Position numbers and translations under genes: made by a program. This document shows, piece after piece, positions 4,517 to 35,411 of a stretch of 37,566 bases of DNA (position 1 is its first letter; each line of letters opens with the position of its first letter). This DNA comes from a virus. Its lineage: Duplodnaviria > Caudoviricetes. A model generated the notes under the pieces. The model searched no databases and was not told the DNA's origin. It saw only the letters and a list, made by a program, of their open reading frames with translations. Location of the stretch: positions 1 to 37,566 of IMG/VR virus record IMGVR_UViG_3300033067_000376; one strand, written 5' to 3'.

Positions 4517-5554
4517 ATGGATGTTTTGAGGATTTCTACATCAATGTGTGCTCGTGGGCGTTTTCGCGCAGAAGTGCATACTGGTCATTTTTATGAAAAT
4601 GGTAAACTTGTAAGACTTGCAGACCCTATTCGTCAGACTTCTTTTGGGAAGAATGTTATTACACTATCTGGTATTGCTAAGCTATTAAATGATGATGTTC
4701 CTATTAAGATGCAAGCAGGTGATGATAATACTACACCAGCTGAGTCTGATACTCAATTAGGTAATCTTCTGGGTAGTACTACTACTCATGTTTCTACAAA
4801 CACTAACAGAAATACCACTCCTGATGGAGATGGGAATGTCACTTGGACTGCTACATATCGTTATACTTTTAATCCTGGAGCTCTGGGTAGTGTTCCTGTA
4901 AATGTCGCCGAAGCTGGTGTTAGAAGTAATGATATTGATAATGTTTTGGTATCTCATGGACTTTTAGTAGATGATACTGATACTCCTACTACTGTTTCAG
5001 TTGATCCAACTTTTGAGTACCTAGATTTAATCTGGGAACTTACTTTCTATGTCCCAGCTTCAGTCACTGGGACATCTACTTTTTCAATTCTTGGTGTGGA
5101 TACTTCTACGGATTGGGAAGTTCGTCCAGCTTTCTTTGGTAACACTGGCGGTAGTTATAACTTTAAGGGATGGGCTGATGCTTCTGCTGGACTTGTCCCG
5201 GGTTTTAGTATTATTTGGACATCTCTTACTTATGATGGTACAAATGCAGCGACTCAAGTTCGAAGTACAAATGGTTTAGGCGCACTTACAAGTTCTCCCG
5301 CTAATGATAGCGGTCTTACTAATGCTCAAAGAGTCCCCACTTCTGCAATAAGGAATGCTTACGTTACCGATTCAAAGGAACGTACAATGAAACTTGTATG
5401 GCTTCCGGATCGGGCTAATATCCCTGGAGGCATTCAATCGGTTTTAGTAAATTGTGTTTTCAGCCAATGGCAGATTAGCTATAGTCCTAAGTTATCTAAA
5501 ACATCTGACTATCAACTTAACCTTGAATTTAAGTTGACTCTCCATAACAAATGA
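4517..5554 (+). CDS. Putative tail/appendage structural protein (345 aa)
   Basis: T/S/N-rich; NVITLSG...GDDNTTPAESDTQL...NVAEAGV pattern resembles phage tail-fibre attachment domains. Confidence 0.55.
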   Translation: MDVLRISTSMCARGRFRAEVHTGHFYENGKLVRLADPIRQTSFGKNVITLSGIAKLLNDDVPIKMQAGDDNTTPAESDTQLGNLLGSTTTHVSTNTNRNTTPDGDGNVTWTATYRYTFNPGALGSVPVNVAEAGVRSNDIDNVLVSHGLLVDDTDTPTTVSVDPTFEYLDLIWELTFYVPASVTGTSTFSILGVDTSTDWEVRPAFFGNTGGSYNFKGWADASAGLVPGFSIIWTSLTYDGTNAATQVRSTNGLGALTSSPANDSGLTNAQRVPTSAIRNAYVTDSKERTMKLVWLPDRANIPGGIQSVLVNCVFSQWQISYSPKLSKTSDYQLNLEFKLTLHNK

Positions 5555-6093
5555 TTATCCTTCCAGATCAAGGTCTGATTTTTGTTGCAGTGCCTCGTAC
5601 TGGTAGTCAATCTATTGCTTACTGGTTGCAGAAAAACTTTTACCTTCCAGGAAAAGGCTATCCAGCAACAAGAGAGCATCAGAAATTGGATGAACTTCAA
5701 ACTACTGAGTTTGAGCATTTTAAATCTTTTTGTGTTATTAGAGATCCTTTAAGTAGACTTGTATCTATTTGTGCTAGGTTTGACCCTAATTTTCATAGTA
5801 ATCCTGCCCAAAGTATTCTAAAAAATCTTTTAGCTCCACTTAATCGTTTTAATCTTCCACAAACTATTCTAAGTGCTGGAGTTAAAACTAAGATTCCTTA
5901 TGAAAAGTTTACCCAGATCCCAGATATTGTTGGAGATCTTGTGGGAGTAATGAATCTTCCAAAGATTCCTCACTATGATACTGCATCTCCTGAAGGTTTG
6001 GTAGAAAATCTTCCTAATGATATAGTTGATCTAGTTAAAGCTCGATATTTGGATGATTTTAAGTTATTGGAGTTATTAAATGCTTCCACTTAA
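5551..6093 (+). CDS. Sulfotransferase-family protein
   Basis: 5'-PSB-like loop IFVAVPRTGSQSI and 3'-PB-like motif SFCVIRDPLSRLVS; C-terminal YLDDFKLL typical of Sulfotransfer_2-type proteins. Confidence 0.75.
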   Translation: MIILPDQGLIFVAVPRTGSQSIAYWLQKNFYLPGKGYPATREHQKLDELQTTEFEHFKSFCVIRDPLSRLVSICARFDPNFHSNPAQSILKNLLAPLNRFNLPQTILSAGVKTKIPYEKFTQIPDIVGDLVGVMNLPKIPHYDTASPEGLVENLPNDIVDLVKARYLDDFKLLELLNAST

Positions 6094-10944: not shown

Positions 10945-11053
10945 TTCTTCTTTTAGTGCTGAATACATTGCAAGAAACTCAGCTGCAAAGGGTTATGTGA
11001 ATGCTTGTCAGGATGTTCTAAACATTTCTTTTGAGGATATTACTAGTGAATGA
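10808..11053 (+). CDS. Small head-region hypothetical protein (81 aa)
   Basis: GGAG/AGGA RBS; EWKQHPVT motif; usual position between portal and GroES. Confidence 0.65.
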   Translation: MLNLSPEESRQVFLEWKQHPVTQEVLEILAKRIQEHQALWASGNLDSSFSAEYIARNSAAKGYVNACQDVLNISFEDITSE

Positions 11054-11357
11054 GTCAGGAGTAAAACCATTAGGCAGGGCAGTTTTAGTAAAACCTTACA
11101 CTCCCGAACGCCGTGAGGGTTTGATTGTAATTCCAGAGGAAGCTTTGGAACGGGATCAGATGGTTGAACAAAGGGCTGTTGTTGTGGAAGTTGGCCCGCA
11201 CGCTTGGATGGATGAGCCTTGTCCTCGGGCTAAGGTGGGTGATAAGGTGTTGATATCAAAGTTTGCTGGTTATATGGTTAAAGGTACGGCAGACGGATCG
11301 CAGTATCGGCTTGTAAATGACCGAGATATTTTCGCAGCTATTGAAGTGGAGGCATGA
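11046..11357 (+). CDS. groES: GroES-like co-chaperonin
   Basis: VKPLGRAVLV...GLIVIP...VVEVGP...KVGDKVL..KFAG...LVNDRDIFA; GAGGA RBS before GTG 11046. Confidence 0.88.
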   Translation: MNESGVKPLGRAVLVKPYTPERREGLIVIPEEALERDQMVEQRAVVVEVGPHAWMDEPCPRAKVGDKVLISKFAGYMVKGTADGSQYRLVNDRDIFAAIEVEA

Positions 11358-20535: not shown

Positions 20536-20550
20536 ATTCATAATGTGAAT
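20536..20550. promoter_or_regulatory. Palindromic box, copy 5 (ATTCATAATGTGAAT)
   Basis: Occupies the short gap just upstream of ATG 20557 of the giant gene. Confidence 0.75.
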
Positions 20551-20556
20551 ACCACT

Positions 20557-23500
20557 ATGACCCCAGAAGAGATGCTCCGTTTACGAGATCAAGCCCGCGC
20601 ACAGGGGACAGCGGCACAAGATTCTAGTGATACAACTCAAGTAAAGTTTGCTCACCGGCAGAATGCTTGGGATACTGGAAGTGTTTTTCCACAAAGTGTT
20701 CCAGAGACTTCCAGTACCACAGATAACTCTTCCAGCAATATACCTGTTCGACTGCCGAGTGGTAGTCTTTTGCCAAGCGATCCAGAGGTTAAACAAGTTT
20801 TAACTGATACGGCAAATCGCTATAACATTAATCCAGCTTTGTTGCTCGCCGTAGCGCAACAAGAGTCTAGCTATGACCCTAATGCTGTTGGGCCGCAAAC
20901 TCGTTGGGGTCATGCATCTGGGATGTTTCAATTCTTACAGGATACTGCTCGATCCCTTAAGATTGATCCACTGAACTGGCGGCAGGCAGCAGATGCGACG
21001 GCCAGGAGTTTAGCGGAGCAGATCGCTAAGGGTGGAACTGACTGGGCAATTGCCACGCACTTTGCTGGAACTAACCCTGCAGAGCATGGGCCAAAGACTC
21101 GCAGGTATGTTGCTGAGGTTTCGGCAAAAGCTGCTGTTATTGCTAATGAGCTGGGGATTGACTATACTCCGACGAATACTACCCCGGAGTTATTGCGTAG
21201 ATTGCAGAGTGGGCAGCGCCCGAGTGACACAAGCAGTCGTACTCCACAAGCCCGGCAAGCCCCCCGGGCATCCGCTACACCGCAGAGTGGTGAGTCTCCC
21301 AGTAATTGGCATGCACCTATGTTGTACCGCCCTGGGCAGGCAGCACAGCAAACTCCAACAACTCGGCAATCTCAGCCGCCTCGGCAGTTACCTAGGCAAG
21401 TTGCCCCTGACAATATGTCGCCTGCTCAAATGCTTGCGCTTAGGAATGGGCGATCCCCTCAAGCTACCAGTCCGACAGATACTCAAGGTAATCGGGAGAG
21501 TCTTTGGGAAACCCTTAGCCGGAATGTTAGTGAAGCCATCAATCCAGATGATGGGGATGATGGGGATGATTCTTGGCCTTTTGCTACACCGATAGTTAAT
21601 GCAATTGAGCGTGGTTGGCATGGTGTTCAGGGGCTGATTAATCGACAGACTAATCAAGTTACTCTAAGTGATGCAGACCTACAGCGTAGGTTTGAGGATC
21701 AGCAGAGTTCGATGTTCTCCCTTAAGCCTAGGTTTAGGGTCGGGGATAATCCTATTTATATTAATGGACAATCTCCCACTCCCAGTAGCTTAAACTTATC
21801 TGCCCCCATGATGAACTGGGATCAATTCCGTGCCTCACCTTTTTATAAAAGTTGGGAAGCCCAGAATAGAACTATTGAGATGTCAACAGACTCTCAAGCT
21901 GATCAACGACAACAGTGGCTCGATCGTGTTAGGAAAGATCCCACAGCAATTAGTATGTTGCCAGCTAGGTTCTCTGACGTTAGGGATCAAGTGCTAGCTG
22001 AACGCGCACAAGCTCATGGGTTTGCTCCTAGTGGAACAGTTACTGGTAGCCTTCAGCGATTTATTGAGGGATTTCCGAATCCCTTAGACGCTTTGTTAGG
22101 GCGATCCATGCCTGTTAATGCGGTAAATTATCTGGCTAATATCCCGGAATTAGAGAGGAAACGCTTTGAGGAAGGGCGTGAGATTACTAATGCCCTTAAT
22201 GCAGTTAATCATCCTGATCAGTACTCTGCAGAGGATCTCCAGCACTATAATGGAATGCTTCAAGATTGGCGACAAAAAACTAATCCTAATGTAGTCCATG
22301 CTTGGCAAAACTTTTATCAAGCAGCTCAGGCCGATCCAGGAAATACGGCGTTAGGTTTTGCTACGTCTATTATGGCGGATCCTTACTTGCTAAAGATTCC
22401 TGCTGGACTAGGCCTAACGCCCATTCGCGGAGTTAGAAACCTTGCAGGAATTACTACTCCGATGACTCGGGGACTTGCTGGCGCGGATGCGATCATAGAC
22501 GGTACAATCTCTACTGCGGCTGTTAATACTGCCATTGGTATTACATCTGATCTTGCTACAACTGGGCAGGTTAATACTGAGAATGCCCAGCTTAGTGCTG
22601 CACTTGGTGCACTTCTTGGCGCTGGAGGTGGCGGGCTTGCATTCTTGCATGGTGCGCGTGCTCACTTGGCTAATATAGATGAGGCTCGTGCAAGTGGGAA
22701 GCTTGATGAACTTTTGCAAGCGAAGGCTACTGGGGAAGTTGCAGTAGAGAATGCTATCGAGACTCTGCGAACTCCTGAAAAGGATCCTCGATTCGCTGGG
22801 GAGAGGAATCCTACAATCACTCCCATGCAGCGTAGGATTGCAGAACTTACTGGCATACCGCTGCATGATGCAGAAGTTCCCGGTTTAGGGACTGCTGCCG
22901 GTGATGTCTATGGGCCACAGGTAAAGTCTGGTCGGAAAATTCCTACGGAAGGGGTTGAGCATTTTGAAACTACTGGTGCGGGTCGTCGAGATGAGATGAT
23001 TTCTCAGTGGATTAAGAATCGTAGGGCGCAGGTAAAAGAAGCTTTCACAAATGAGGCTGACTACCATCAGTATCAACAGTACGTAGCTGCGGAAAGGCTA
23101 AGGCTTGCTCAAGAAGCTGCGGCTAGGGCACAACAACAGGAAGCTGCGCAAGCTCAAGCTCGGCAAGCTGACTTGGAAAGAACCAACAGGTTCCAGCAAG
23201 AGTTTGAGGCCGCAACTCGTCAACGCGATGAGCAGCTTGCCCGTGGTGAGGTTGAGAACGCTCATGGAATTGCATTAGCTGAACAAGCTCGGCGAGACAG
23301 CGCGGAACAACTTAATGCTTCAGAGTTATTTGATGCATATACCTCACAAGATCAGGCAGCTATCCGGCAAGCTAAGGCTAACATTGATCGAAGGAATGGT
23401 CGTGGTAGATTTAATCAGTTAGGTGAAACTACTACTGACTATGCTACCGCCCTTGGATTGGTAGGCGCAGGGGCGTTAGCAGGTTCAGTACTTTTCCCGC

Positions 23501-26500
23501 AAGATCGGGAACGCGGAGCTATTGCGGCGGCATTACTTCTGGGACTCCCCGCTGCCGTTTTAGGCCTACGTGGGCGAATGGGCTCAATTGAATCCCGTGA
23601 GTTCAGGTCTCCGGCGTTCCAAGAGGGTGCATTAAAATTAGCTGGAAAGCTTCCTAAGGAAGAAGCTGCCCGAGTTTACAGGACACATCAAGACGTTTTA
23701 AGCGATGCTTTACAAGGAAAGTTTATTAACCGAGATGTTGATAGTACAACTATTACGCATCCAGCTACATACTCTGGAAGATTTATTCCACAATTTGCTG
23801 AAATTGCAAATATGCTAGGGGCTAAATCTGTCATTGATACTATGGCAGGGGTAGGCAACATTGGACGTATTAAAGAGTTTGGTTATAGTGGTAAGATTAT
23901 TGCTAATGAACTTGAACCTGAGTGGGCAGCCCTTCATGGGAAGCATGGAGTTGATAAGAGTATTACTGGAGATGGTAGAAACATCCCGCAGGTTAAGACT
24001 AATAGTGTCGATTTAGGTATTGTCTCCCCACCTTATGGAAATGGTTTAGCTGAAAGTAGGCTTAATGGAAATCTTCGGAGTCTTACTTATGCAAACTCCC
24101 TTGGAAGAAAACTTACTGAGGGCAACGGCGGTGGGATGAAGTGGGGGCAGGCTTATAGGGATTTACATGAAGGCATCTATAAAGAACTTTATCGAATCAT
24201 CAAGCCCGGCGGACATGCTTTAATTAACTCAAAAGACTTCATCAAAAAAGGTGAGGTTGTTAAAGTTAATGATTGGCATATTAGGGCTATGGAAGCCGCT
24301 GGATTTAAGTTACTTTCTAGAGATCAAATTAAATCTTCTGGACTTATCACAGGGGCTGTAAAGCGGCCTAGGGTCGGCTATGAAGAGTTCATGCTTTTCA
24401 GTAAACCAGATAAAACTGGTAAAATCCCGGCTAAACAACGTGGCGAGATCAGTGAGGAGATGCGAACGATTCTAGGTCGTGCAGCCATCGCTACTACCCT
24501 TGCTGGTGCTGGGTATGCAATGAGTCCAGAAGAGCATAGGCTTGCTGGCGGAATCTTGGGTGGGTTAGCTGGACTGGTTGTTCCTCTGGGCGGGGGTAGT
24601 CGCGGCAGTATTCTTAGCTACTTCCATAACATTGGCGCGATAGATGCCGATGGGCTTCCTCGTGGGATTAGGACATTTGGCGGGAAGATTGCCGATGCGG
24701 CAGAAGATGCTAGGCTTAAGGCTAGGGATGACGCTTGGATAAAAGCAGCAGCTGCCGGGGATCAGCGAGCTTTCGAGAATCTTTATCGTGCATACTCTGA
24801 TACAACACGACGCTATGTTGATAGGATGATTCGTTCTAGCAGCACCCGTATTGCTAATGATGCTGATGGAGTTATGAATGAAGCATTCTTCAATGTCTAT
24901 GAGTGGATGCAAGAAAACCCTGAGGTTCCGATAGATAACTTTAGAGACTTCGTTGGGCAATCGGCTAAGAATGTTCTGCTTAATGCACTGAAGGCAGAGC
25001 GTACAATTAAGCGGGATATGCCTACAGTGTCTGAGGCAGATGCTAACGCAGAGCTAGATGCTCAAGGAAAGCCTGCAGCGATTGGTAGTAGCATTATTGA
25101 TCAGACTCCGGGAACCGACCCCGTAAGTAGGAAACTTATCATTGATAATATAGGCGAGAATCCTGAGAGTGTCGCTATGAGGGATCAGCTTAAAGATGTT
25201 ATTCGAAAAGCTGTGGAAACTCAATCAGACATTAACCAGAAAGTTTTCATCATGCGAAACTTTGATAACATGTCTCCTCAGGAAGTAGCAGATGCCCTCG
25301 GGATTAGTAAGAATAATGTTCAAGTAATCGACAATCGTGTAAAAACTCGGGTGCAGAATGCTATTGTAGAAAAGATCCCAGAAGTTCGTTCGATGTTAGA
25401 GGATCGGTATGCTCCTGGACATGAGCCTAAGCCAAAGGTTAGAGGACCGGCTGGACAAAGGGGATCGGCAACTACTGGCGATATGGCAACTGTTGCTACC
25501 CTAGCAGCGGCTGTCGGCGCTGCCTCGTATTTTATGAGTGACGAGAATACTTGGGGCGCTCTAGTCTCAGGTGGCATTGCTGCTGCGCTGACGGCAGTTG
25601 CACGAGGAAAGTCTGGAAGGTTTAGCGGGGCAACTCGTGCGGCGGTGGCGCTTCGTGCTGTAGATTGGCGACTTAAAGAGTTTGGTGGGCATTTCTATGG
25701 TATGGCCAAGGAACATGGAATGCTTGAGTCTCAAGCAATTGCTCACTATAACAATGTTACTGCACCCTTCTCAAAGTGGCTTAATAGTTTGAAACCTCAA
25801 GTTCGTGCGATTATGGTAGAAGCTTTGTCTACCCGAGATGAGGGAATTATTAATGGGATGTTGGAGCATCTAGGCGGGCAGACTGCTGTTGAGGCATTTA
25901 AGCCTGTTCGGGCTATCCTTAACAACATTGAGGATACCCTTGTTTCACTGGGAATTATTAAGAAGTCCGAGGTTGATTACTTCCCCTTCCGAGTCAAAGA
26001 CTTAGAGGGTTTGCGAAATGCCTTGGGAATTGAGCAGAAGGACTTTATTACCGCAGCTCTTAAGGCTGCCGATGATAAGATGTTCAAGAACTTAAACCGG
26101 CACCTTACTCAAATTGAGCAAGATGTTATTGTGAATAAGCTTCTTGAACCTTACTTAGGCTCTCGCATAGGTCCGCAGATGCCAGGCTTTGCACGGGCAC
26201 GGACTATTAAAACCATCCCGGAGAGTTTGCAACGATACTATCATGACCCAGTTACTACTCTGAATAGCTATGGCCAGCAGGCAATTAAATATATTCAGAG
26301 GGCAAAGTTTTTTGGCAAACACCTAAAGATGGTAGATCAAGAAGGTAAAAAGGTTGTAGACATTAGCGCTTCCATAGGTGAGCTTACTAGGTCACTTCAT
26401 GAAGCTGGAAAACTTACTGAGCAACAGACGTTTGAACTTGCGTCTATGTTGCAAGATAGGTTTAATGGTGGAGAGCAGAGTAGTGGTACGATTGTGAGAG

Positions 26501-27603
26501 AAATTAAGAACTGGTCAACTGCTTCTATGCTGGGGCAGTTTGTTTTCTCCGCCGTAGCACAGGTTAATGATTTAGTTTGGCAGATTTACCGCCACGGCCC
26601 TAGAGCTTCTATTGAGACTGCTATTAGGTTAGCTATCAACAAACCACTTGTTCGGTTAAAGGATTTTGGAATTACCGAGCACATGGTGCATGAGTACATT
26701 TCAGAAGGACTATCCTCAAAGGTTGTAAAGAAAAGTTTGCTTGTGTCTGGCATGAGCTTGATGGATAATGCAGCTAAGAGTTTTGGTCTAAATGCTGCAC
26801 TCATCGAGTATAGGAATATGGTAAAGAGTGGGGTGGATGGAAAGCCTAATGTTAAAGGTGAAGCTAGGTTACGTGAGCAGTTCGGCGGATACTTCCCTGA
26901 TAAGATTGAAAAGATTATTAGTGATTTAAGGGAAGGAAAAATTACCCCAGATACAGAGCTTCTCGCTTGGACAGACCTCACGGATACTCAACCGCTGACA
27001 GCTTGGGAACTTCCGCAGTTGTACCATCACTTACCTAATGGAAGAATTATTTATCACTTGCAAACCTTTAACATTCGCGCAGGTAACTTGATCTATGAAG
27101 AAGCCATTAAGAACATTACTTCCGGGAATGTTAAGCAAGTGATGAAGGGCCTACGAGCATTGACTGGCTTTGCTGTAGTGTTCGGTGCTGGTGGAGTTGC
27201 TGGAGATAAGATTAAAGACTTGTTGAGAGGTCGAGAGATAAAGCTAAACCCCTGGGAGATTCCCTTGAACTTGGTGCAAGCGGCTGGTGGGAATCTTTAT
27301 AACTATCGAACCCATAGAGCTAACACACCAATGGAAGCTGTTATTAATAGGCTTCCGCCAGTGATAGGGATGGCTGAGTCTGCTTACCAAGATCCTACAA
27401 CGCTTATTAGGAGGGTTCCCGCAGTAGGTGAGTGGATTTATAATCTGAATCGTCCAAGGCTACAAGCGTGGAATAAAGATAGGGTTAGTAAATTTGATCA
27501 CTCAATTACAATTAATGTTGAAGGGCGAGACAGCTCAAGTGGTTCAAGCAGTTCAAGCAGGAATAGTCGAAATAGTAGGCGCAACACTAGGAGGCATTAC
27601 TAA
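20557..27603 (+). CDS. Giant multidomain ejection protein: lytic transglycosylase + DNA methyltransferase + ECF-like sigma factor + helical C-terminal domain
   Basis: SLT (AVAQQESS...ASGMFQF, ~20779-21156); MTase (HPATY, VIDTMAGVG, SPPY, IIKPGG, ~23750-24410); sigma regions 2 and 4 (GDQRAFENLY...; SPQEVADALGIS..NV, ~24727-25365). ATG 20557 is preferred to GTG 20545. Confidence 0.85.
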   Translation: MTPEEMLRLRDQARAQGTAAQDSSDTTQVKFAHRQNAWDTGSVFPQSVPETSSTTDNSSSNIPVRLPSGSLLPSDPEVKQVLTDTANRYNINPALLLAVAQQESSYDPNAVGPQTRWGHASGMFQFLQDTARSLKIDPLNWRQAADATARSLAEQIAKGGTDWAIATHFAGTNPAEHGPKTRRYVAEVSAKAAVIANELGIDYTPTNTTPELLRRLQSGQRPSDTSSRTPQARQAPRASATPQSGESPSNWHAPMLYRPGQAAQQTPTTRQSQPPRQLPRQVAPDNMSPAQMLALRNGRSPQATSPTDTQGNRESLWETLSRNVSEAINPDDGDDGDDSWPFATPIVNAIERGWHGVQGLINRQTNQVTLSDADLQRRFEDQQSSMFSLKPRFRVGDNPIYINGQSPTPSSLNLSAPMMNWDQFRASPFYKSWEAQNRTIEMSTDSQADQRQQWLDRVRKDPTAISMLPARFSDVRDQVLAERAQAHGFAPSGTVTGSLQRFIEGFPNPLDALLGRSMPVNAVNYLANIPELERKRFEEGREITNALNAVNHPDQYSAEDLQHYNGMLQDWRQKTNPNVVHAWQNFYQAAQADPGNTALGFATSIMADPYLLKIPAGLGLTPIRGVRNLAGITTPMTRGLAGADAIIDGTISTAAVNTAIGITSDLATTGQVNTENAQLSAALGALLGAGGGGLAFLHGARAHLANIDEARASGKLDELLQAKATGEVAVENAIETLRTPEKDPRFAGERNPTITPMQRRIAELTGIPLHDAEVPGLGTAAGDVYGPQVKSGRKIPTEGVEHFETTGAGRRDEMISQWIKNRRAQVKEAFTNEADYHQYQQYVAAERLRLAQEAAARAQQQEAAQAQARQADLERTNRFQQEFEAATRQRDEQLARGEVENAHGIALAEQARRDSAEQLNASELFDAYTSQDQAAIRQAKANIDRRNGRGRFNQLGETTTDYATALGLVGAGALAGSVLFPQDRERGAIAAALLLGLPAAVLGLRGRMGSIESREFRSPAFQEGALKLAGKLPKEEAARVYRTHQDVLSDALQGKFINRDVDSTTITHPATYSGRFIPQFAEIANMLGAKSVIDTMAGVGNIGRIKEFGYSGKIIANELEPEWAALHGKHGVDKSITGDGRNIPQVKTNSVDLGIVSPPYGNGLAESRLNGNLRSLTYANSLGRKLTEGNGGGMKWGQAYRDLHEGIYKELYRIIKPGGHALINSKDFIKKGEVVKVNDWHIRAMEAAGFKLLSRDQIKSSGLITGAVKRPRVGYEEFMLFSKPDKTGKIPAKQRGEISEEMRTILGRAAIATTLAGAGYAMSPEEHRLAGGILGGLAGLVVPLGGGSRGSILSYFHNIGAIDADGLPRGIRTFGGKIADAAEDARLKARDDAWIKAAAAGDQRAFENLYRAYSDTTRRYVDRMIRSSSTRIANDADGVMNEAFFNVYEWMQENPEVPIDNFRDFVGQSAKNVLLNALKAERTIKRDMPTVSEADANAELDAQGKPAAIGSSIIDQTPGTDPVSRKLIIDNIGENPESVAMRDQLKDVIRKAVETQSDINQKVFIMRNFDNMSPQEVADALGISKNNVQVIDNRVKTRVQNAIVEKIPEVRSMLEDRYAPGHEPKPKVRGPAGQRGSATTGDMATVATLAAAVGAASYFMSDENTWGALVSGGIAAALTAVARGKSGRFSGATRAAVALRAVDWRLKEFGGHFYGMAKEHGMLESQAIAHYNNVTAPFSKWLNSLKPQVRAIMVEALSTRDEGIINGMLEHLGGQTAVEAFKPVRAILNNIEDTLVSLGIIKKSEVDYFPFRVKDLEGLRNALGIEQKDFITAALKAADDKMFKNLNRHLTQIEQDVIVNKLLEPYLGSRIGPQMPGFARARTIKTIPESLQRYYHDPVTTLNSYGQQAIKYIQRAKFFGKHLKMVDQEGKKVVDISASIGELTRSLHEAGKLTEQQTFELASMLQDRFNGGEQSSGTIVREIKNWSTASMLGQFVFSAVAQVNDLVWQIYRHGPRASIETAIRLAINKPLVRLKDFGITEHMVHEYISEGLSSKVVKKSLLVSGMSLMDNAAKSFGLNAALIEYRNMVKSGVDGKPNVKGEARLREQFGGYFPDKIEKIISDLREGKITPDTELLAWTDLTDTQPLTAWELPQLYHHLPNGRIIYHLQTFNIRAGNLIYEEAIKNITSGNVKQVMKGLRALTGFAVVFGAGGVAGDKIKDLLRGREIKLNPWEIPLNLVQAAGGNLYNYRTHRANTPMEAVINRLPPVIGMAESAYQDPTTLIRRVPAVGEWIYNLNRPRLQAWNKDRVSKFDHSITINVEGRDSSSGSSSSSRNSRNSRRNTRRHY

Positions 27604-27881
27604 TGGGACAAGCTGACTTTTTAAAACTTGGTGACTGGAATGCTAATTGTGCAGAGTGTGGAAGGAAGTTTAAGGCTTCCACACTTATCAGGCACTGGAA
27701 AGGGTATTATGTTTGTAAGGAGCATTGGGAAACGCGTCATCCACAGGACTTTGCAAGGGGTAGTTCAGACAATCAAGCTGCTCCGTTTGTTCAAGAACTT
27801 CCAATTCCAACTTTTGTAGAAGGTTCACCTAGCTCAACAATTCCAAGTCCTTCAGACTATCCAATTCATGGAGTTGATTAA
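27603..27881 (+). CDS. Small Cys/His (Zn-finger-like) phage protein
   Basis: CAECG...VCKEHWETRHPQ; coupled start and stop on both sides. Confidence 0.65.
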   Translation: MGQADFLKLGDWNANCAECGRKFKASTLIRHWKGYYVCKEHWETRHPQDFARGSSDNQAAPFVQELPIPTFVEGSPSSTIPSPSDYPIHGVD

Positions 27882-29232: not shown

Positions 29233-30435
29233 TTAATTGCCAATCCAAGTGTACAACTTATCTGCCTCACTGACTAGTAGTTTAATCTGAAGCTTACCCA
29301 TTTGTTGTAGGGTGACTTCAATGTTAGCTAAGGTGTAGGGATCAATGTCTCGGTAGAACATTTGAAGCACTTTCTTTCTAGTAGTCACACCCATTTGCTG
29401 AATGTAGTTAGCAATAATATCAGTTTCTTCACTTGCCCGTGCCCTGCCAAGTCCACCAAAGGTCTTGGCCATATGAACTTCCGCGCTTTCCAGCAAGCCT
29501 TTTGCCTTATAAAAATCCACCTCTGTCAACTTAAGAGAGTCATCACGGGCAGCACTACATAAGAGCATCAGCTTTCGCAGGTGAGTTGCTCGGCGCTCAC
29601 AGTAACCAGCAAATCGCTTATCCTCAACAGCAGGTTTCCCAGCACTTAGCTTTGAGTCTTGGTCTATGTACCAGCTTACATAGGCGTCCTCGCCCTTTTG
29701 ATCGAATGTCATCTCACCGGCGAGATTAGATATTCGTTCCAAATCCTTTACCAGCTTTTCTCCAAGCTCCCTGGTAGCCTGGTCAATGACAAACTTTGGA
29801 ACAATCTTTCTTTTCTTTTCCTCAACAATGAAGATTACTCGACTAGTAAATCCACCTCCGAGAGCTTCTTGTGGAATCATACTCTGAATCCAGTCCGGAG
29901 CAGTCCCGCCAATTAAGTTAAGACAAAGTCCTTGCAGGGAGTCCTTACCACGGCCAACAGTCTCATACTCCCAATCATCTTTTGAATCATACCAGTCTGT
30001 TAGGTTGGATAGGTAGGCAATGTCACCTTGCCCGAGGAAGACACTAAGCTCTTCAGAGAATGCTGTTACCGAACAGTGGAACTTGATCTTCTTATCAACA
30101 GGATCCTCAAAGTTTTTACTTGCACGCTTCATAGCCAAGATCATAGCCTGCCGGCCGGAGGAACTCTCTGGAACCACAGTAATCCCCGGAGTTCTCTTAA
30201 GCATGTCCTTTGCAATACCAATAGCTGTGCCCTTTCGAGTTCGGCCACTTGGCCCTATAAGAACAACGTACAAATTTGGGTAGATTGTTTCTGCTAGTCC
30301 CCATTGCAGGTAGACTCGTCGTTGTAAAGCTCCTGCAATTACGGATAGACCGCACCAAGTGTGGTAGCTAACTGGGCTCTCAGTGCTATCTGTGTAAGTC
30401 AGGTAGCTGTCAAGCCAGTTGGTTAACTCCCGCAT
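29233..30435 (-). CDS. P-loop ATPase, putative replicative helicase (DUF3987/YfjI-like)
   Basis: PNLYVVLIGPSGRTRKGT (Walker A), FSEEL (Walker B), GGFTSR (arginine finger); adjacent to PolA. Confidence 0.7.
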   Translation of the reverse strand: MRELTNWLDSYLTYTDSTESPVSYHTWCGLSVIAGALQRRVYLQWGLAETIYPNLYVVLIGPSGRTRKGTAIGIAKDMLKRTPGITVVPESSSGRQAMILAMKRASKNFEDPVDKKIKFHCSVTAFSEELSVFLGQGDIAYLSNLTDWYDSKDDWEYETVGRGKDSLQGLCLNLIGGTAPDWIQSMIPQEALGGGFTSRVIFIVEEKKRKIVPKFVIDQATRELGEKLVKDLERISNLAGEMTFDQKGEDAYVSWYIDQDSKLSAGKPAVEDKRFAGYCERRATHLRKLMLLCSAARDDSLKLTEVDFYKAKGLLESAEVHMAKTFGGLGRARASEETDIIANYIQQMGVTTRKKVLQMFYRDIDPYTLANIEVTLQQMGKLQIKLLVSEADKLYTWIGN

Positions 30436-31945
30436 CTTTCCATCCTTCCAGTGCAGTTAGAAACTGTTCATGGGATTCTATGTCCAACATTCCAGTTGGA
30501 TTCCGGATCTTGTGCCTCTCACCCCAGTTTAGGCCAAACTTAAAATCACTAGCAATCTTAAAGGTTCGCCCACTATAGGTGATAGGAGGACTGGTATAGG
30601 CAACAACCTTTTCAATAAACTCTTTGAACGACTCTGGGTTTTTCAGTACATTTACAGGGACTTGCATTAACACTGAGTCATGAACTTGCGTAAGCACATC
30701 AATGTTAAAGCCTTTACTTCCACACAGATCAGAGTCTTGATAGATGGCAACCATGCCACTGTTCAAAGAATCAACTACCGTACTCTGTGGAATCATGGCA
30801 TAGGCACTTTTCCACAAGTCATCGCCCCACTGTCCCATAAATCTAACTGAGCGCCCGAAACAATTGGTGAGGGTGCGGGTGGCACTGAGTTCTCGTTTAA
30901 CTTGCTCATACCAAACTCTGATGCCGGGATAAATCTGGTGGTATAGTGAGACAATTCGCTTTGCTTCAGGTATTTCAATTTCGTTAATAAGTGCGAAACC
31001 ATTAGGCCCTTCATCATAGTTAAGACCATGGTTGGACTTTTTGCCACATTGCCGCAATGACATTGTGCGAGGCCATCTGGCGTCATAGATCTCTGACAAC
31101 TCACGTTGCCGCAACTGCCTAATAAAATCTGCATCAGTGGAGTGTCCAATTAGTGTGCCCTCGACTTTAATAATCCCAGGATCAATCCCGAACATTAGGC
31201 TGGCAGTATGAGTGTGAACGTCGATGCCCTTCTCGACAGCAGCAATCATGTTAGCATCACCGCTGGCATAAGCTACAACAACCCACTCAGCCTGCCGCTT
31301 GTCAACCTCAACAAAGACATAACCATCATCAGCCACGATGAACTTCTTAAACTCTTGCGGTAGATTCTGTAAGTTTGTTCCGGTGCCAAAGATAGTTTTA
31401 GAACTTGACAACCTACCAAACTTAGTCCCACGAGGATTAAAAGAACACCTAATTCGAGAGTCCTTATCAAACTCCAGATTCAGGTAGGTTCCGCTAAGTT
31501 TTTTCAATCCCCTGATTTCTTGCACCAGCTTTGCTTGGTGAAGCCCGGGTTGCTTAGCTGTGCCTCGAACTAACCGTTGCAACGCCTTATCATCGACTGT
31601 AGCATTTCCAACCTTGTTTGTGTAAGGTTTGTATCCAAGTTCTTTGTAGAAGTAGTCTTGACAATCTTTTGGGCTTAAAGGATTCAGTACTCGACCGCAA
31701 GCCTCATTAAGCTCAATTTGTTTTTTGGCTATATCATCTTGAACGTCTTGCCTAGTGCTCGCCAGCGCACGCATGTCAACCTTAATGCCACGAGTTTGCA
31801 TGAACATCAGCACAGGAAAGAGTTTCATCGTTAAGTCTACGGCTGGCTTAAACTGATTAAGCTCATGCCAGAAGCGTTCGTATATCTCTAAAGTACAAGC
31901 CGCGTCAAGGGCAGCATACTTTAGAAAGTCCTCAGACATTTTCAT
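30410..31945 (-). CDS. polA: DNA polymerase family A, C-terminal subunit (ExoIII motif + polymerase domain)
   Basis: YAALDA (ExoIII), GRLSS, NLQN, motif A DKRQAE, motif B RQCGKKSNHGLNY, motif C QVHDS; GGGAG RBS before ATG 31945. Confidence 0.9.
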   Translation of the reverse strand: MKMSEDFLKYAALDAACTLEIYERFWHELNQFKPAVDLTMKLFPVLMFMQTRGIKVDMRALASTRQDVQDDIAKKQIELNEACGRVLNPLSPKDCQDYFYKELGYKPYTNKVGNATVDDKALQRLVRGTAKQPGLHQAKLVQEIRGLKKLSGTYLNLEFDKDSRIRCSFNPRGTKFGRLSSSKTIFGTGTNLQNLPQEFKKFIVADDGYVFVEVDKRQAEWVVVAYASGDANMIAAVEKGIDVHTHTASLMFGIDPGIIKVEGTLIGHSTDADFIRQLRQRELSEIYDARWPRTMSLRQCGKKSNHGLNYDEGPNGFALINEIEIPEAKRIVSLYHQIYPGIRVWYEQVKRELSATRTLTNCFGRSVRFMGQWGDDLWKSAYAMIPQSTVVDSLNSGMVAIYQDSDLCGSKGFNIDVLTQVHDSVLMQVPVNVLKNPESFKEFIEKVVAYTSPPITYSGRTFKIASDFKFGLNWGERHKIRNPTGMLDIESHEQFLTALEGWKDAGVNQLA

Positions 31946-32148
31946 TAGTCGCAAACTCCCGAAGGGCAGCCGGTTTTAATACTCTGGCCATAAGCTTTAT
32001 AAGCGGTGTAAGCTCCAAGAAAACTCTTGTATGGCCCAATAGCATCATCACCAGACTCATTCCAGAAGTAGTAATGGTTGTCCAAAAGCCCCATGTCTGT
32101 GAGTGCTTGGTAGTTTTCAAGTCCTTTGTTTACAAGAAAAATATTCAT
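31945..32148 (-). CDS. Small hypothetical protein (67 aa) between the two polymerase halves
   Basis: AAGGA RBS; ATGA and TAATG couplings on either side; YYFWNE...GPY. Confidence 0.65.
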   Translation of the reverse strand: MNIFLVNKGLENYQALTDMGLLDNHYYFWNESGDDAIGPYKSFLGAYTAYKAYGQSIKTGCPSGVCD

Positions 32149-33176
32149 GAGTTTTCCTTGATGTTAGTAAACTTCGCCAAATCCTTCCAGTATTCCTGAG
32201 ATCCGCAGTAGATGCTGCCAAGGAAGCCAAGCCCCTTTTGTAACTCAGGATACATGCAAGAATGCCCAATCATAGTATCTCGGATTTCTCCAGCAATTAA
32301 AAGCCCATACCGAGCCAGCATGAACTGGATGTCGAAGATTCCATTTTGCAAAACTTTAATGGTATTAGGATTCCCTAGGAGTCTGTCGAGCCTTCGCCAG
32401 ATTACAAACTCCTCCTCAAGAGTCCACCTATCTGCAATAGGAATCACGCAAGCAACACTAGGATCAATGGAAAGATTAATACAGCTTACTTCATAGTTGA
32501 TTACTTCGATATCAACTGACAGTGGTTTGTTAGGCTGGCTCTCAAAGTAATCCAGCCAACTTACAGCTTCCTCAAGACTTGCGAAGTTATAGATTAACTT
32601 TCTGTCTGGCCGCCGAAGCTCGGGGAACAAACTTTCTTGCTTAGCTTTCTTAAGATCACAAGTAATCAGGTGTCGATAGATATACATTCCCCTAACTGCC
32701 TGGCTTGGAGAAAACGTCGGGATCACCTTAACACAACGTCCTAAACCCAAACTAGGAAACACATACCCACGCTTAGCACTGACCTTGCTAATCCCGCATA
32801 CAGCCGCACTGGCAGCAGCCCCGCAGGTAACTATCACATTACCGTCAAAATCTTTTAACTCTTCCTGTAAGGCACTAACTGCTTCCTGTCCTGCTGCGGT
32901 AAACTTTCCAGTTCTCTCAGAAAAAAGGTCTGGCCTAGCTCCCTCGGGAGTTGGTCGGGCAGCTTTATAACTTTTGAATATATTAGTCAAATACACCTCG
33001 CCCCGGATTAGTTGAGCAAGGTGTAAGCACTGAGAGAGTACTGTTCCAGCAGTTCCCTGAAACGGCCGCAATACTTTATCGTCATAAGCTGAGGAGTAGT
33101 CACCTATGATGGCAATCTTCGCAGAAAGATCCCCCTCGGGTTTGACCACCCTATCAGCCTTAAAAGGAATAAACAT
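32145..33176 (-). CDS. DNA polymerase N-terminal subunit: UDG-family-4-like domain + 3'-5' exonuclease (ExoI/II)
   Basis: EGDLSAKIAIIG...PFQGTAG..L...YLTN (UDG fold); SVDIE (ExoI), QNGIFD (ExoII), DTM. Confidence 0.8.
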   Translation of the reverse strand: MFIPFKADRVVKPEGDLSAKIAIIGDYSSAYDDKVLRPFQGTAGTVLSQCLHLAQLIRGEVYLTNIFKSYKAARPTPEGARPDLFSERTGKFTAAGQEAVSALQEELKDFDGNVIVTCGAAASAAVCGISKVSAKRGYVFPSLGLGRCVKVIPTFSPSQAVRGMYIYRHLITCDLKKAKQESLFPELRRPDRKLIYNFASLEEAVSWLDYFESQPNKPLSVDIEVINYEVSCINLSIDPSVACVIPIADRWTLEEEFVIWRRLDRLLGNPNTIKVLQNGIFDIQFMLARYGLLIAGEIRDTMIGHSCMYPELQKGLGFLGSIYCGSQEYWKDLAKFTNIKENS

Positions 33177-33178
33177 AA

Positions 33179-34489
33179 TTACTCCGAAGCAAAGAGTTTC
33201 TTTGTGTCCTCTTCTACTGCCAGCAAGAACTTATCTTTATAGCTTCCATCAAGGTCAAACCCAAAGCCGTGCATCCCGAGATTATAAACAGCTCGTAAAG
33301 TAGCACCGCTCCCCAGGAAAGGTATAAAAACATTAGACATCCCGGCAACCAGCGTTCGGAAAATCTCTTCAATAAGGGCCGTCGGCCGCTGAGTAGGATG
33401 ATACTTGCGAGACTCAGGAGAAAAACTAAAGACGTTGCTCCTACCGCGTTCCACCATAACAGGCTTGCCCTTTCGGCAAAGATAGAAAGGCTCATAGCAT
33501 CGGGCATAGTAAAGCTCCGGTTGCATAGTTTGACCATTCGGCTTCACCCACAGAGCAGGAATCTCGTCAACAAGCCAGCCGGCAGACCTCAAACTTTCCA
33601 GCACCTCAGCCTGCCACGTAGGGCCGAACCAAAACACTAACCAACAATCCTTTCCTGCAACGCGATAAAGTTCTTTGGTTAGGTTGTCCAAGAAACCCTT
33701 ATAGGTTTCCGAACTAACTTCCTTGTAGTCATCAGCCGCGCTGCCTGACTTTTGCGCTCCAAGATCAATTCCATAGGGCGGATCACACTCAATCAAAGAA
33801 ATGTTACCACTGGACTTTAGCTTAGCCATCCCAGTAAACACATCCCCGACTCGATAATTTTCCATAGCTATTTTAAGCGTATCAGCTATGCCCTTATCAA
33901 GACCCTTTGCAGGAGCCTGGAGCTTGGCATCTTGACGCTTTCGCATCTCAGAAACCAGTGCATGTTCTTCGAGTTTCTTAATCATTTTAAAGGCATCATC
34001 AGCAGTCTTGGCCTCGCCAAGTGCCGGCATTGCCTTAATAGCATTGGCCAACTGGATGTCTTTGTTAGTAATCCCAACACTCATCTCAAGAAGGTCAGCC
34101 GTTTTTTGCTGATTCCATCCAGGGTTTTTCTTGCGGTAGAGTTCGTCAATCTCCGCAGTCAGTTTAGCGCGCTCTTGCCAAGTAAAGTCTTTGCGAAAGA
34201 CATTCTCCATCAACTCAATTTCTTTTGAGTCCAGCAGGTCAGAACTGTCACGCAAGATAGCTGGGATACTTTCAAGCCCCAAGTCTGTGCAAGCCTGAAA
34301 GCGCCGTCCGCCAGCAAGCAGAACGAGATCAGATGTCAGAGTGATAGGTTGCAGGATTCCCTTAGCTTTGATGCTTTCCTTTAGAGCTTCCAAGTCTCCA
34401 AAGTCTTGCCGAGCACGGTCTTGAACAGTAATATCAGAGAGCTTCACATGCTTCAGCTTATCCTTCCGCTGTCCCTCAATCTTTTGCAT
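33179..34489 (-). CDS. ParB/Srx-domain + HTH + amino-DNA methyltransferase fusion
   Basis: LKESIK..GILQPI...LAGGRR...EN..RKD (ParB); QQKTADLLEMS (HTH); DPPY, HPTQRP, PFLGSG (beta-class MTase). Confidence 0.85.
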   Translation of the reverse strand: MQKIEGQRKDKLKHVKLSDITVQDRARQDFGDLEALKESIKAKGILQPITLTSDLVLLAGGRRFQACTDLGLESIPAILRDSSDLLDSKEIELMENVFRKDFTWQERAKLTAEIDELYRKKNPGWNQQKTADLLEMSVGITNKDIQLANAIKAMPALGEAKTADDAFKMIKKLEEHALVSEMRKRQDAKLQAPAKGLDKGIADTLKIAMENYRVGDVFTGMAKLKSSGNISLIECDPPYGIDLGAQKSGSAADDYKEVSSETYKGFLDNLTKELYRVAGKDCWLVFWFGPTWQAEVLESLRSAGWLVDEIPALWVKPNGQTMQPELYYARCYEPFYLCRKGKPVMVERGRSNVFSFSPESRKYHPTQRPTALIEEIFRTLVAGMSNVFIPFLGSGATLRAVYNLGMHGFGFDLDGSYKDKFLLAVEEDTKKLFASE

Positions 34490-34721
34490 TAGATTTCTCC
34501 AGTTCGGCTAATAGTTGCGCAAGGGCTTCGTTAGATAGCCCGCTTAGGATACCTTGAGTTTTGTGAATCTTTGTAACCCTACCCTTGTTACTTTCTCTAG
34601 TCTTTCTAGCAGCAGCTGCTGGCCGAGCCACTGTTCGATTGTGCCTAATTTGCTTAAGCCTTTCCATTAGGTCTTCATCAGACAGCGCGCTAAGGGGTTT
34701 TACTAAATCATCAAGTTGCAT
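34476..34721 (-). CDS. Hypothetical protein (81 aa)
   Basis: In-operon, GGAG RBS, basic/helical. Confidence 0.6.
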   Translation of the reverse strand: MQLDDLVKPLSALSDEDLMERLKQIRHNRTVARPAAAARKTRESNKGRVTKIHKTQGILSGLSNEALAQLLAELEKSNAKD

Positions 34722-34724
34722 ACA

Positions 34725-35411
34725 TTACTCCCGTGTAGCCAGTTCCTTCTTTGCAGCAGCTAAAACAGCTTCGTCCATGTTAGGTTGTGAGATTAGCCAG
34801 TTTAGGTAGTCCGCCCCAATTACAGTAAACTTAAGACCTTTGTACCGACCAAAGGGCATTTTTAGAAGATCTCTTGGAGAGCTTGTCCATGTCAGCAGAG
34901 TTTCTGGAGTTTGATACTTTAAAAGCTCGTTAAGGATGGCCGTTGTAGTTAGGCAGTCCCCTAAAGCTGTGTGAGATTGTTGACTGAAAGACCTACCGCA
35001 ACGATCAAGCTTGAGCCAGTACTTCAAACCTTCATTGCTATGCGTCGGGGCATCTGGCCACTGGCGAAGAGCACACTTGTATGTACAAATCCAAGGATAC
35101 TCTGACAGTCCTACAAAGGATTGGTCAAACTTAGCATTGTGTGCAACAAGATACTTAGCTCCCCATGCTTCAAGGGTTTGTTTTACCTGTGGGAAAAAGG
35201 CTTCCCATGTTGGAGAGTCTTTTACATCACTATTAGTAATATGATGAATAGCACTAACACTTGCAGGAATATCTTGGGTAGGATTGATTAAGCTAGCCTG
35301 GATAAAGTTAGGCCCAACCGCACAGAACTCTACAATTTTATCAGTGGCCGAGGAAAGTCCAGTTGTTTCTACATCTATTACAACAAAAGTTTGTTCTGGA
35401 ACATCACTCAT
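34725..35411 (-). CDS. DEDDh 3'-5' exonuclease (DnaQ/ExoX-like)
   Basis: VIDVETTG, VAHNAKFD, HTALGD; C-terminal MPFGRYKG module. Confidence 0.88.
   Translation of the reverse strand: MSDVPEQTFVVIDVETTGLSSATDKIVEFCAVGPNFIQASLINPTQDIPASVSAIHHITNSDVKDSPTWEAFFPQVKQTLEAWGAKYLVAHNAKFDQSFVGLSEYPWICTYKCALRQWPDAPTHSNEGLKYWLKLDRCGRSFSQQSHTALGDCLTTTAILNELLKYQTPETLLTWTSSPRDLLKMPFGRYKGLKFTVIGADYLNWLISQPNMDEAVLAAAKKELATRE

Follow-up and report, generated by a model that had tools for sequence, protein, structure and literature searches.

Repeated tag-and-hairpin modules flank exchangeable cargo domains in a predicted ejection protein of podophages

Among the described systems closest to the locus studied here are the ejection genes of phage T7, which include gp16 (layout as given in the portion of PMC8954989 that deals with them). 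The locus is an open reading frame (ORF) of 2352 amino acids (aa) at 20545..27603, plus strand, of the virus record IMGVR_UViG_3300033067_000376, a stretch of 37,566 nucleotides (nt) hereafter called the window. Like T7 gp16, the PhiM1 ejectosome (PDB 8vb2) and the E1004 core protein (9vvp), it is the third of three predicted ejection genes, with an N-terminal transglycosylase and a large helical body. Unlike T7 gp16 as treated in that portion of PMC8954989, however, the protein carries repeated tag-hairpin modules, with unrelated cargos, between its two ends. In this it resembles the polyvalent proteins (Iyer et al. 2017, PMC5512222), large late-region products in which unrelated effectors occur in varying combination (lysozyme, methyltransferase (MTase), ART-PolyVal, ParB and LPD23 among them), and for which the main text of that paper proposes injection and processing. 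The processing is ascribed there to an embedded zincin MPTase, present in about 36% of the set. Unlike these MPTase-bearing proteins, the window protein lacks an HExxH motif, which is found in 19/201 relatives against 5 expected by chance and is a cargo in a minority of proteins. The words sigma, transmembrane, QxG, glycine and PcfJ each occur 0 times in the main text of PMC5512222. As in N4 gp50, in so far as PMC13434306 describes it, a transcription function lies in the largest ejection protein and would be cytoplasmic at the entry site; however, gp50 is a polymerase in one piece, whereas the window protein has an exchangeable cassette with a sigma factor that would serve the host polymerase.

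Three modules, each a Q-x-G site followed by a hydrophobic hairpin, are present as the preliminary description of this DNA reported. The Gln codons start at 23416, 24436 and 25456 (aa 958, 1298 and 1638), 340 codons apart both times, and the sites read QLG (23416..23424), QRG (24436..24444) and QRG (25456..25464); the protein holds eight Q-x-G in total and only these three precede Gly/Ala-rich hydrophobic stretches. Hairpin 1 (23440..23583) consists of two Gly/Ala-rich helices with an acidic loop and is glycine-zipper-like, hairpin 2 lies at 24463..24591 and hairpin 3 at 25483..25605. The second Gly motifs reported after hairpins 1 and 2 (FQEG/AL and HNIG/AI) were also confirmed. The former, QEG/AL, is upstream of the MTase (23620..23634) and the latter, NIG/AI, precedes the sigma factor (24628..24642; Q-x-G/AI in close relatives), while hairpin 3 has no such site after it. 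The DNA MTase cargo (23758..24417; motif I near aa 1098, SPPY at aa 1161) matches PF01555 over aa 1155-1291 with an E of 3e-5, under the curated cut-off. The second cargo (24718..25386) is a sigma-70 factor of the extracytoplasmic function (ECF) type with regions 2 and 4, matching TIGR02937 over aa 1409-1606 (profile positions 2-164 of 165, 62.7 bits against a cut-off of 42.9); in relatives the sigma cargo matches PF04542 and PF08281 in Pfam. No promoter for the cargo sigma factor was identified in this analysis. Module DNA is not repeated, and no DNA repeat marks the three sites. Searches of PDB sequences with the module and with the MTase gave nothing significant, and an Atlas search with the module gave no usable match.

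The module is a trait of a whole family. A first viral scan with the single full protein found no relatives. A search with the body domain found 34 proteins, viral and metagenome contig scans (two of them using the best 80 of 324 and the best 80 of 160) added loci, and the non-redundant body-bearing set came to 173 proteins. An iterated profile recovered 133 modules in 62 of these 173 (threshold 13 bits; reversed control at most 8.7). In a midpoint-rooted tree of 115 body domains, from which 58 short ones were omitted, all 60 hairpin proteins fell into one clade (support 1.0). A profile built from 35 modules then matched 453 representatives at E <=0.001. Among the best 150 of the 453, 146 were new; 93 of these bear the same body and 45 a second body family, whose profile alignment with the first has a probability of 81% and an E of 1e-5. 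In total, at least 420 copies were counted in 208 proteins at a threshold of 12 bits, with a single reversed control scoring as high as 12.7; some copies are protein/locus duplicates. The consensus is a basic lead-in, Q/E-x-G, a small or charged residue at +1, A/V/I at +2 and D-P at +3/+4, followed by two Gly/Ala-rich helices with an acidic loop. In the 286 copies from newly found proteins G occurs in 97%, Q/E in 82% and A/V/I at +2 in 95%, letters which the profile itself favours. A check free of this circularity found [QE]xGx[AVI] 20-95 aa upstream of the body in 57/62 hairpin proteins against a background of 15%; in the non-hairpin relatives, Q-x-G without a hairpin upstream of the body (8/62) was not above that background. 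Moreover, Q1638, G1640 and G960 do not vary in an alignment of 19 proteins selected by their C-terminal domain, and the last hairpin lies about 59 residues upstream of the body. Conservation in homologues, on which the preliminary description had staked its proposal, was therefore borne out, with cargo boundaries following the module. The acidic residue it placed at +5/+6 is not conserved: the three window modules have E, D and G at +5, and across the family E+5 is found in 114/390 modules and K/R in 152/390.

The hairpin itself resembles the glycine-zipper 2TM domains, which are likewise Gly/Ala-rich two-helix hairpins. PF05433, PF13488 and PF13441 match 5, 5 and 7 of 35 modules at E <=1, mostly weakly and at best at 8e-6, while pilin families match none of the 35 at that threshold; the nearest Pfam look-alikes are thus glycine zippers and not pilins. 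These three families are not known to carry a Q-x-G-x-[AVI]-D-P lead. Unsupervised counts of 3-letter motifs were dominated by conserved domains. Sister lineages with the same body have another junction tag, [DN]-[IVP]-x-[FY]-[SQ], with 23 copies in 14/81 proteins (shuffle mean 2.7, maximum 7) and 1 copy in the 60 hairpin proteins. The D-I-x-F-S form is seen in P0029, L099, L159, L166, L167 and others, with up to 5 copies per protein, and L167 has one extra 261-aa unit tagged with [FY][SQ] relative to L166. HExxH was tried as a partner of the [FY][SQ] tag and showed no association (p = 0.39).

What lies between the modules is highly variable. The 205 between-module segments fall into 22 single-linkage cargo clusters, with sigma factors (103), PcfJ-like domains (62, some compound), an unnamed domain (16) and MTases (3) followed by rare ART-PolyVal, ParB, HD and LPD23 cargos and HExxH matches; Pfam cargo scans covered 26 and 18 proteins. 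An ECF-type sigma factor is found in 117/201 long hairpin proteins and in 0/111 relatives without the hairpin, a set that includes many fragments. In P0179 the PcfJ-like cargo region contains an intein bearing a LAGLIDADG domain.

Whole units are gained and lost at the module or within it. Relative P0001 is 96% and 95% identical to the window protein on either side but lacks hairpin 1 and the MTase, reading QLG and then EISG. The missing cassette (hairpin 1, MTase and site 2; 23429..24450) is also absent from a contig of wastewater run X4, in which only two letters separate 23428 from 24451; the net loss, 1020 nt and in frame, gives the junction of P0001. Run X4 contains both forms, at a depth of 25 for the joint and 13 for the cassette form. 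One-unit differences that switch within a few residues of the Gly are seen in the pairs window/P0001, P0004/P0005, P0007/P0010 and L114/P0189; the three besides the first are close pairs that switch at the tag site, two of them with PcfJ-type cargo. The nearest relative of each hairpin serves the same cargo in 91/103 cases for sigma, 191/208 for the body and 46/62 for PcfJ. Judged from these sequences, the exchanged unit is the hairpin plus its cargo, and the earlier proposal of a plug-in cassette system holds in that whole units come and go at the module with cargo boundaries tracking it. The nearest kin of the window's MTase hairpin are PcfJ hairpins. Therefore, it is likely that the MTase replaced a PcfJ cargo behind the second site. 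Stand-alone ORFs of Vibrio phage eugene 12A10 are relatives of this MTase, which is no copy of the ParB-MTase encoded elsewhere in the phage.

The equal spacing of the three modules, for which a size constraint and coincidence had both been offered, is a coincidence. The 205 module spacings range from 68 to 847 aa, and they are equal in only 2/46 three-module proteins, namely the window protein and its 93%-identical relative P0002. In P0003 they are 340 and 348, and the sigma cassettes of 20 close relatives measure 315-348 aa. A size rule for cassettes is refuted by the overall spread.

Several features of the whole protein point to ejection. Its true start may be the ATG at 20557. A lytic transglycosylase (SLT) domain, predicted to be periplasmic, is encoded at 20782..21159 (PF01464 at aa 89-140, E 9e-10, above cut-off; tblastn matches extend to about aa 205). 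Hydropathy marks an earlier Gly/Ala-rich stretch at aa 615-705 (22387..22659), which is not a Q-x-G module and is a candidate inner-membrane crossing. A structure model of the middle hydrophobic region, made in the search for an autoprotease, was of low confidence (predicted template modelling score, pTM, 0.36) and gave no fold match. The conserved helical body at the C-terminus (25642..27534, 630 aa) is predicted to have a T7 gp16-type ejectosome fold; its model has a mean predicted local distance difference test (pLDDT) score of 69 and a pTM of 0.68. The top solved matches of this model are two ejectosome proteins, and the likeness is modest (Foldseek E 5.5e-3, prob 0.97; VIA Z 6.1 and 5.5, the former with a root-mean-square deviation of 6.1 over 229 aligned residues). 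Against BFVD it matched many internal virion proteins (E 1e-6 to 1e-4, TM-scores about 0.45-0.5). Taken together, the gene order, the SLT domain and the gp16-like body lead us to infer a T7 gp16-type ejection protein. A basic Ser/Arg-rich tail (27535-27600), kept in close relatives, ends the protein and possibly binds DNA or serves as a packaging signal.

Our leading explanation, which we hold tentatively, is that the cassettes are membrane-anchored, swappable and cut at Q-x-G by a sequence-specific and probably host protease; packaging in the virion, membrane insertion, cleavage and cargo activity are steps that we infer. Upon ejection the SLT domain would remain in the periplasm, the earlier hydrophobic stretch would cross the inner membrane, and the hairpins would insert into that membrane from the cytoplasmic side with both ends in the cytoplasm. 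The protease would cut after the tag Gly (Q/E-x-G-x-[AVI]-D-P), and cuts at first-type sites would leave one piece with an anchor and the body and others with an anchor and a cargo each. Where present, the second site (Q-x-G/A[IV]) would free the cargo, whereas the last hairpin, without one, would keep the DNA-conducting body membrane-bound. Incoming DNA would then be supplied with host RNA polymerase immediately by the sigma factor and modified by the MTase. Units would be swapped by recombination at or between modules, and cassette lengths would for that reason be arbitrary.

The distribution of charge is consistent with a membrane hairpin whose two ends are cytoplasmic: net charge averages +1.4 over the 12 residues before the Gly, -1.2 in the loop and +0.8 after the hairpin. 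The idea of inner-membrane hairpins put forward at the outset agrees with the data in this respect; as for insertion, it is predicted only, and the helices are weakly hydrophobic. A recognised tag is suggested by the second-type sites. These precede 73/205 cargos but only 12/208 bodies (after the last hairpin), against 28/980 background windows, and 74/75 of them have no hydrophobic tract (mean hydropathy -0.02). The same five-residue pattern thus occurs in two contexts, one of them neither helical nor hydrophobic, which suggests that the five residues of the tag are read, rather than a membrane-helix signal.

Other observations weigh against this explanation. At 132/205 cargos, including 60/103 sigma cassettes, no recognisable second site is found, so that release of free cargo, as first proposed, cannot be a general rule. 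Upstream of the window's own sigma factor the second-type site reads N-I-G, and the counts of second sites are not independent, as cassettes are inherited. [QE]xG is absent from 54/413 modules, and several hairpins directly after sigma region 4 are untagged. On a crude scale the helices come out as borderline for insertion into a membrane (medians +3.7 and +4.8 kcal/mol). In L041 versus L117 the exchange lies inside the second helix; what breakpoints at the module demonstrate is therefore recombination between repeats and not cutting. Regarding the natural deletion, the short side of the X4 joint is only 24 letters, the joint was seen in 1/8 runs (X10 has no coverage there), and P0001 may share its source with run X4.

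That most cargos lack a second site would be expected if the chain stays uncut, a close rival explanation that we regard as somewhat less probable than cleavage. The tag would then be the start and N-cap (D-P) of a hairpin for membrane anchoring or docking, and the cargos would act tethered at the DNA entry pore, the MTase modifying passing DNA and the sigma factor recruiting host RNA polymerase, which pulls the genome in. D-P is a typical helix start, and D+3 occurs in 289/390 modules and P+4 in 270/390; moreover, no protease gene was found in the phages searched. There is precedent for tethering in the N4 gp50 RNA polymerase, which is anchored by a linker according to the relevant part of PMC13434306 and so also counts against cleavage, and for recruitment of host RNA polymerase in T7 gp16, as covered in PMC8954989. 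Hand-over of host RNA polymerase by the sigma factor is expected whether the chain is cut or tethered. However, an uncut chain leaves unexplained the Q/E at -3, the G at -1 and the second, non-helical context, which is found before cargos and not before the body and is not accounted for by a helix cap. Nor does it explain P0011, in which a cargo like an ADP-ribosyltransferase (ART; assigned from its YH motif, with no Pfam match) follows QRG without a hairpin.

With regard to the enzyme, the preliminary description favoured a prepilin peptidase. Class III signals are N-terminal, with a hydrophilic leader of 6-26 residues ending in Gly, then 21 mostly hydrophobic residues with Glu at +5, of which only the Gly is critical and Glu+5 is dispensable for processing (PMC4471445, in the part on these signals). 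The modules share with them a basic stretch (K/R at -2 in 192/390), a near-invariant Gly at -1 (97%), a hydrophobic helix after it and a predicted cytoplasmic face. No A24 peptidase was found among the phages' own genes (0/5 records; controls positive in 12/14), as would be expected if a host type IV or Flp enzyme (PilD, TadV) cut the internal sites, and since Glu+5 is dispensable, its lack of conservation does not exclude such cutting. Yet the modules differ in being internal and repeated, in having D-P instead of Glu+5, charged first turns and two helices, and in being joined by a second site without a helix. The window Gly residues are at aa 960, 1300 and 1640, and in relatives the first module lies at median aa 527, far from an N-terminal leader. 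In 354/382 first sites there are 2-6 charges in +1..+21, the mean hydropathy of this tract is 0.8 with none above 1.6, and +1 is hydrophobic in 31/390 sites. The lack of a tract at nearly all second sites and of any pilin match at E <=1 among the 35 modules points the same way. Any cutting enzyme is therefore probably not a pilin-processing peptidase, and we consider cleavage by PilD or TadV unlikely. A predicted complex between P. aeruginosa PilD and module 2 scored 0.14 against a mark of 0.32, which speaks neither for nor against such cleavage.

A phage protease, the other candidate named at the outset, was not found either. No protease family was detected among the window proteins, the genes common to 38 hairpin loci contain none, and a Pfam scan of the complete relatives G001 and G005 gave no protease shared by both. 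The two weak matches were in G001 only, one to a Clip domain and one in a 145-aa ORF (L199:16629-17063) that weakly matches a proteasome subunit (E 2e-5), a match not seen in G005 or the window. This bears on an alternative in which the tag is read at assembly, by a phage protease or packaging chaperone unrecognisable by sequence, and the hairpins are packing handles in the capsid. The helices are weakly hydrophobic, polyvalent proteins have been proposed to be processed in the head (PMC5512222, main text), and one candidate reader is the 92-aa CxxC..CxxH Zn-ribbon ORF (27603-27881) that overlaps the stop codon of the ejection gene and is found in 31/38 hairpin loci. However, the Zn-ribbon protein also adjoins 11 non-hairpin loci and the charge asymmetry fits a membrane; with no protease family in the window or common to the two complete relatives, we judge this alternative improbable. 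The Zn-ribbon ORF belongs to an Atlas cluster with 513 viral members and has no Pfam family.

Taking in the phage's transcription, the most far-reaching version would be that podophages without an RNA polymerase of their own inject an anchored polyprotein from which a host inner-membrane protease, possibly a prepilin-type one that reads internal pilin-like sites, frees on arrival a sigma factor and interchangeable anti-defence enzymes. In this full form it is rather doubtful; if true, delivery by the phage would be set off by an enzyme of the host, and new cargo would have a standard socket to fit into. A Pfam scan of 120 ORFs (>=75 aa) of complete G001 and G005, with the G001 ejection ORF left out, named no RNA polymerase or stand-alone sigma factor. 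A search of 5 records for T7-type RNA polymerase gave no match, and its controls were silent too.

The window covers the greater part of a podophage genome (CheckV completeness of the record, 83%). Its genes run terminase, SU10-like portal, GroES, capsid, adaptor and head closure, followed by ORFs of 190, 447 and 2352 aa, and this three-gene order after the adaptor and head-closure genes is kept in relatives. Lysis genes with a spanin-like ORF lie downstream of the 2352-aa ORF, and a family A DNA polymerase block is on the opposite strand. There (30410-35411, minus strand) DNA polymerase functions are split over ORFs of 514, 343 and 228 aa, with a ParB-MTase fusion in their midst; in G005 a single 820-aa ORF corresponds to the parts of 343 and 514 aa. 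The GroES co-chaperonin gene of the head module (11031-11357) has a counterpart in both G001 and G005, and an ORF of a sulfotransferase family (5551-6093) sits amid the tail-fibre genes. Wastewater and aquatic sequencing runs yield close variants of the window phage, while no isolate in the phage collection searched covers 80% of the 2352-aa protein. Four related contigs occur in genome bins of Anaerolineaceae, Cellvibrionaceae (2) and Rhodoferax; since three have the size of a phage genome and could have been co-binned, the host was left unassigned.

A 13-base-pair palindrome, TTCAYAWTRTGAA, has 7 copies in the window (445, 1383, 8480, 14237, 20537, 29214 and 35941) against 0.24 expected. Copies are mostly intergenic or at gene starts and, the first pair excepted, are 5.8-8.7 kilobases apart. 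Related palindromes number 8 in the complete genome G001 and 3-4 each in L015, L194, L195 and L196; in the window, L003, L015, L194 and L196 a copy directly precedes the ejection gene. No such enrichment was found among 129 non-hairpin loci. The palindrome is likely a site for a dimeric protein and may resemble parS.

Polyvalent proteins and their proposed processing were already known (PMC5512222, main text). What is new is a gp16-type body with a socket made of tag and hairpin, with no protease embedded and with a natural pair that has or lacks one cassette; a literature search, mostly at abstract level and covering few subscription papers, found no description of the module. Cutting of polyvalent proteins has been a prediction since 2017 without mapped sites, and this family supplies exact candidate sites. 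The natural pair and the lack of a built-in protease make the question testable with one cloned gene. A complete ECF-type sigma factor within an ejection protein, as in the 117 long members, represents a route of host takeover for which we came across no publication. Should a defined socket on an ejectosome indeed accept cargos of 70-800 residues, it would offer a ready design for protein delivery into bacteria.

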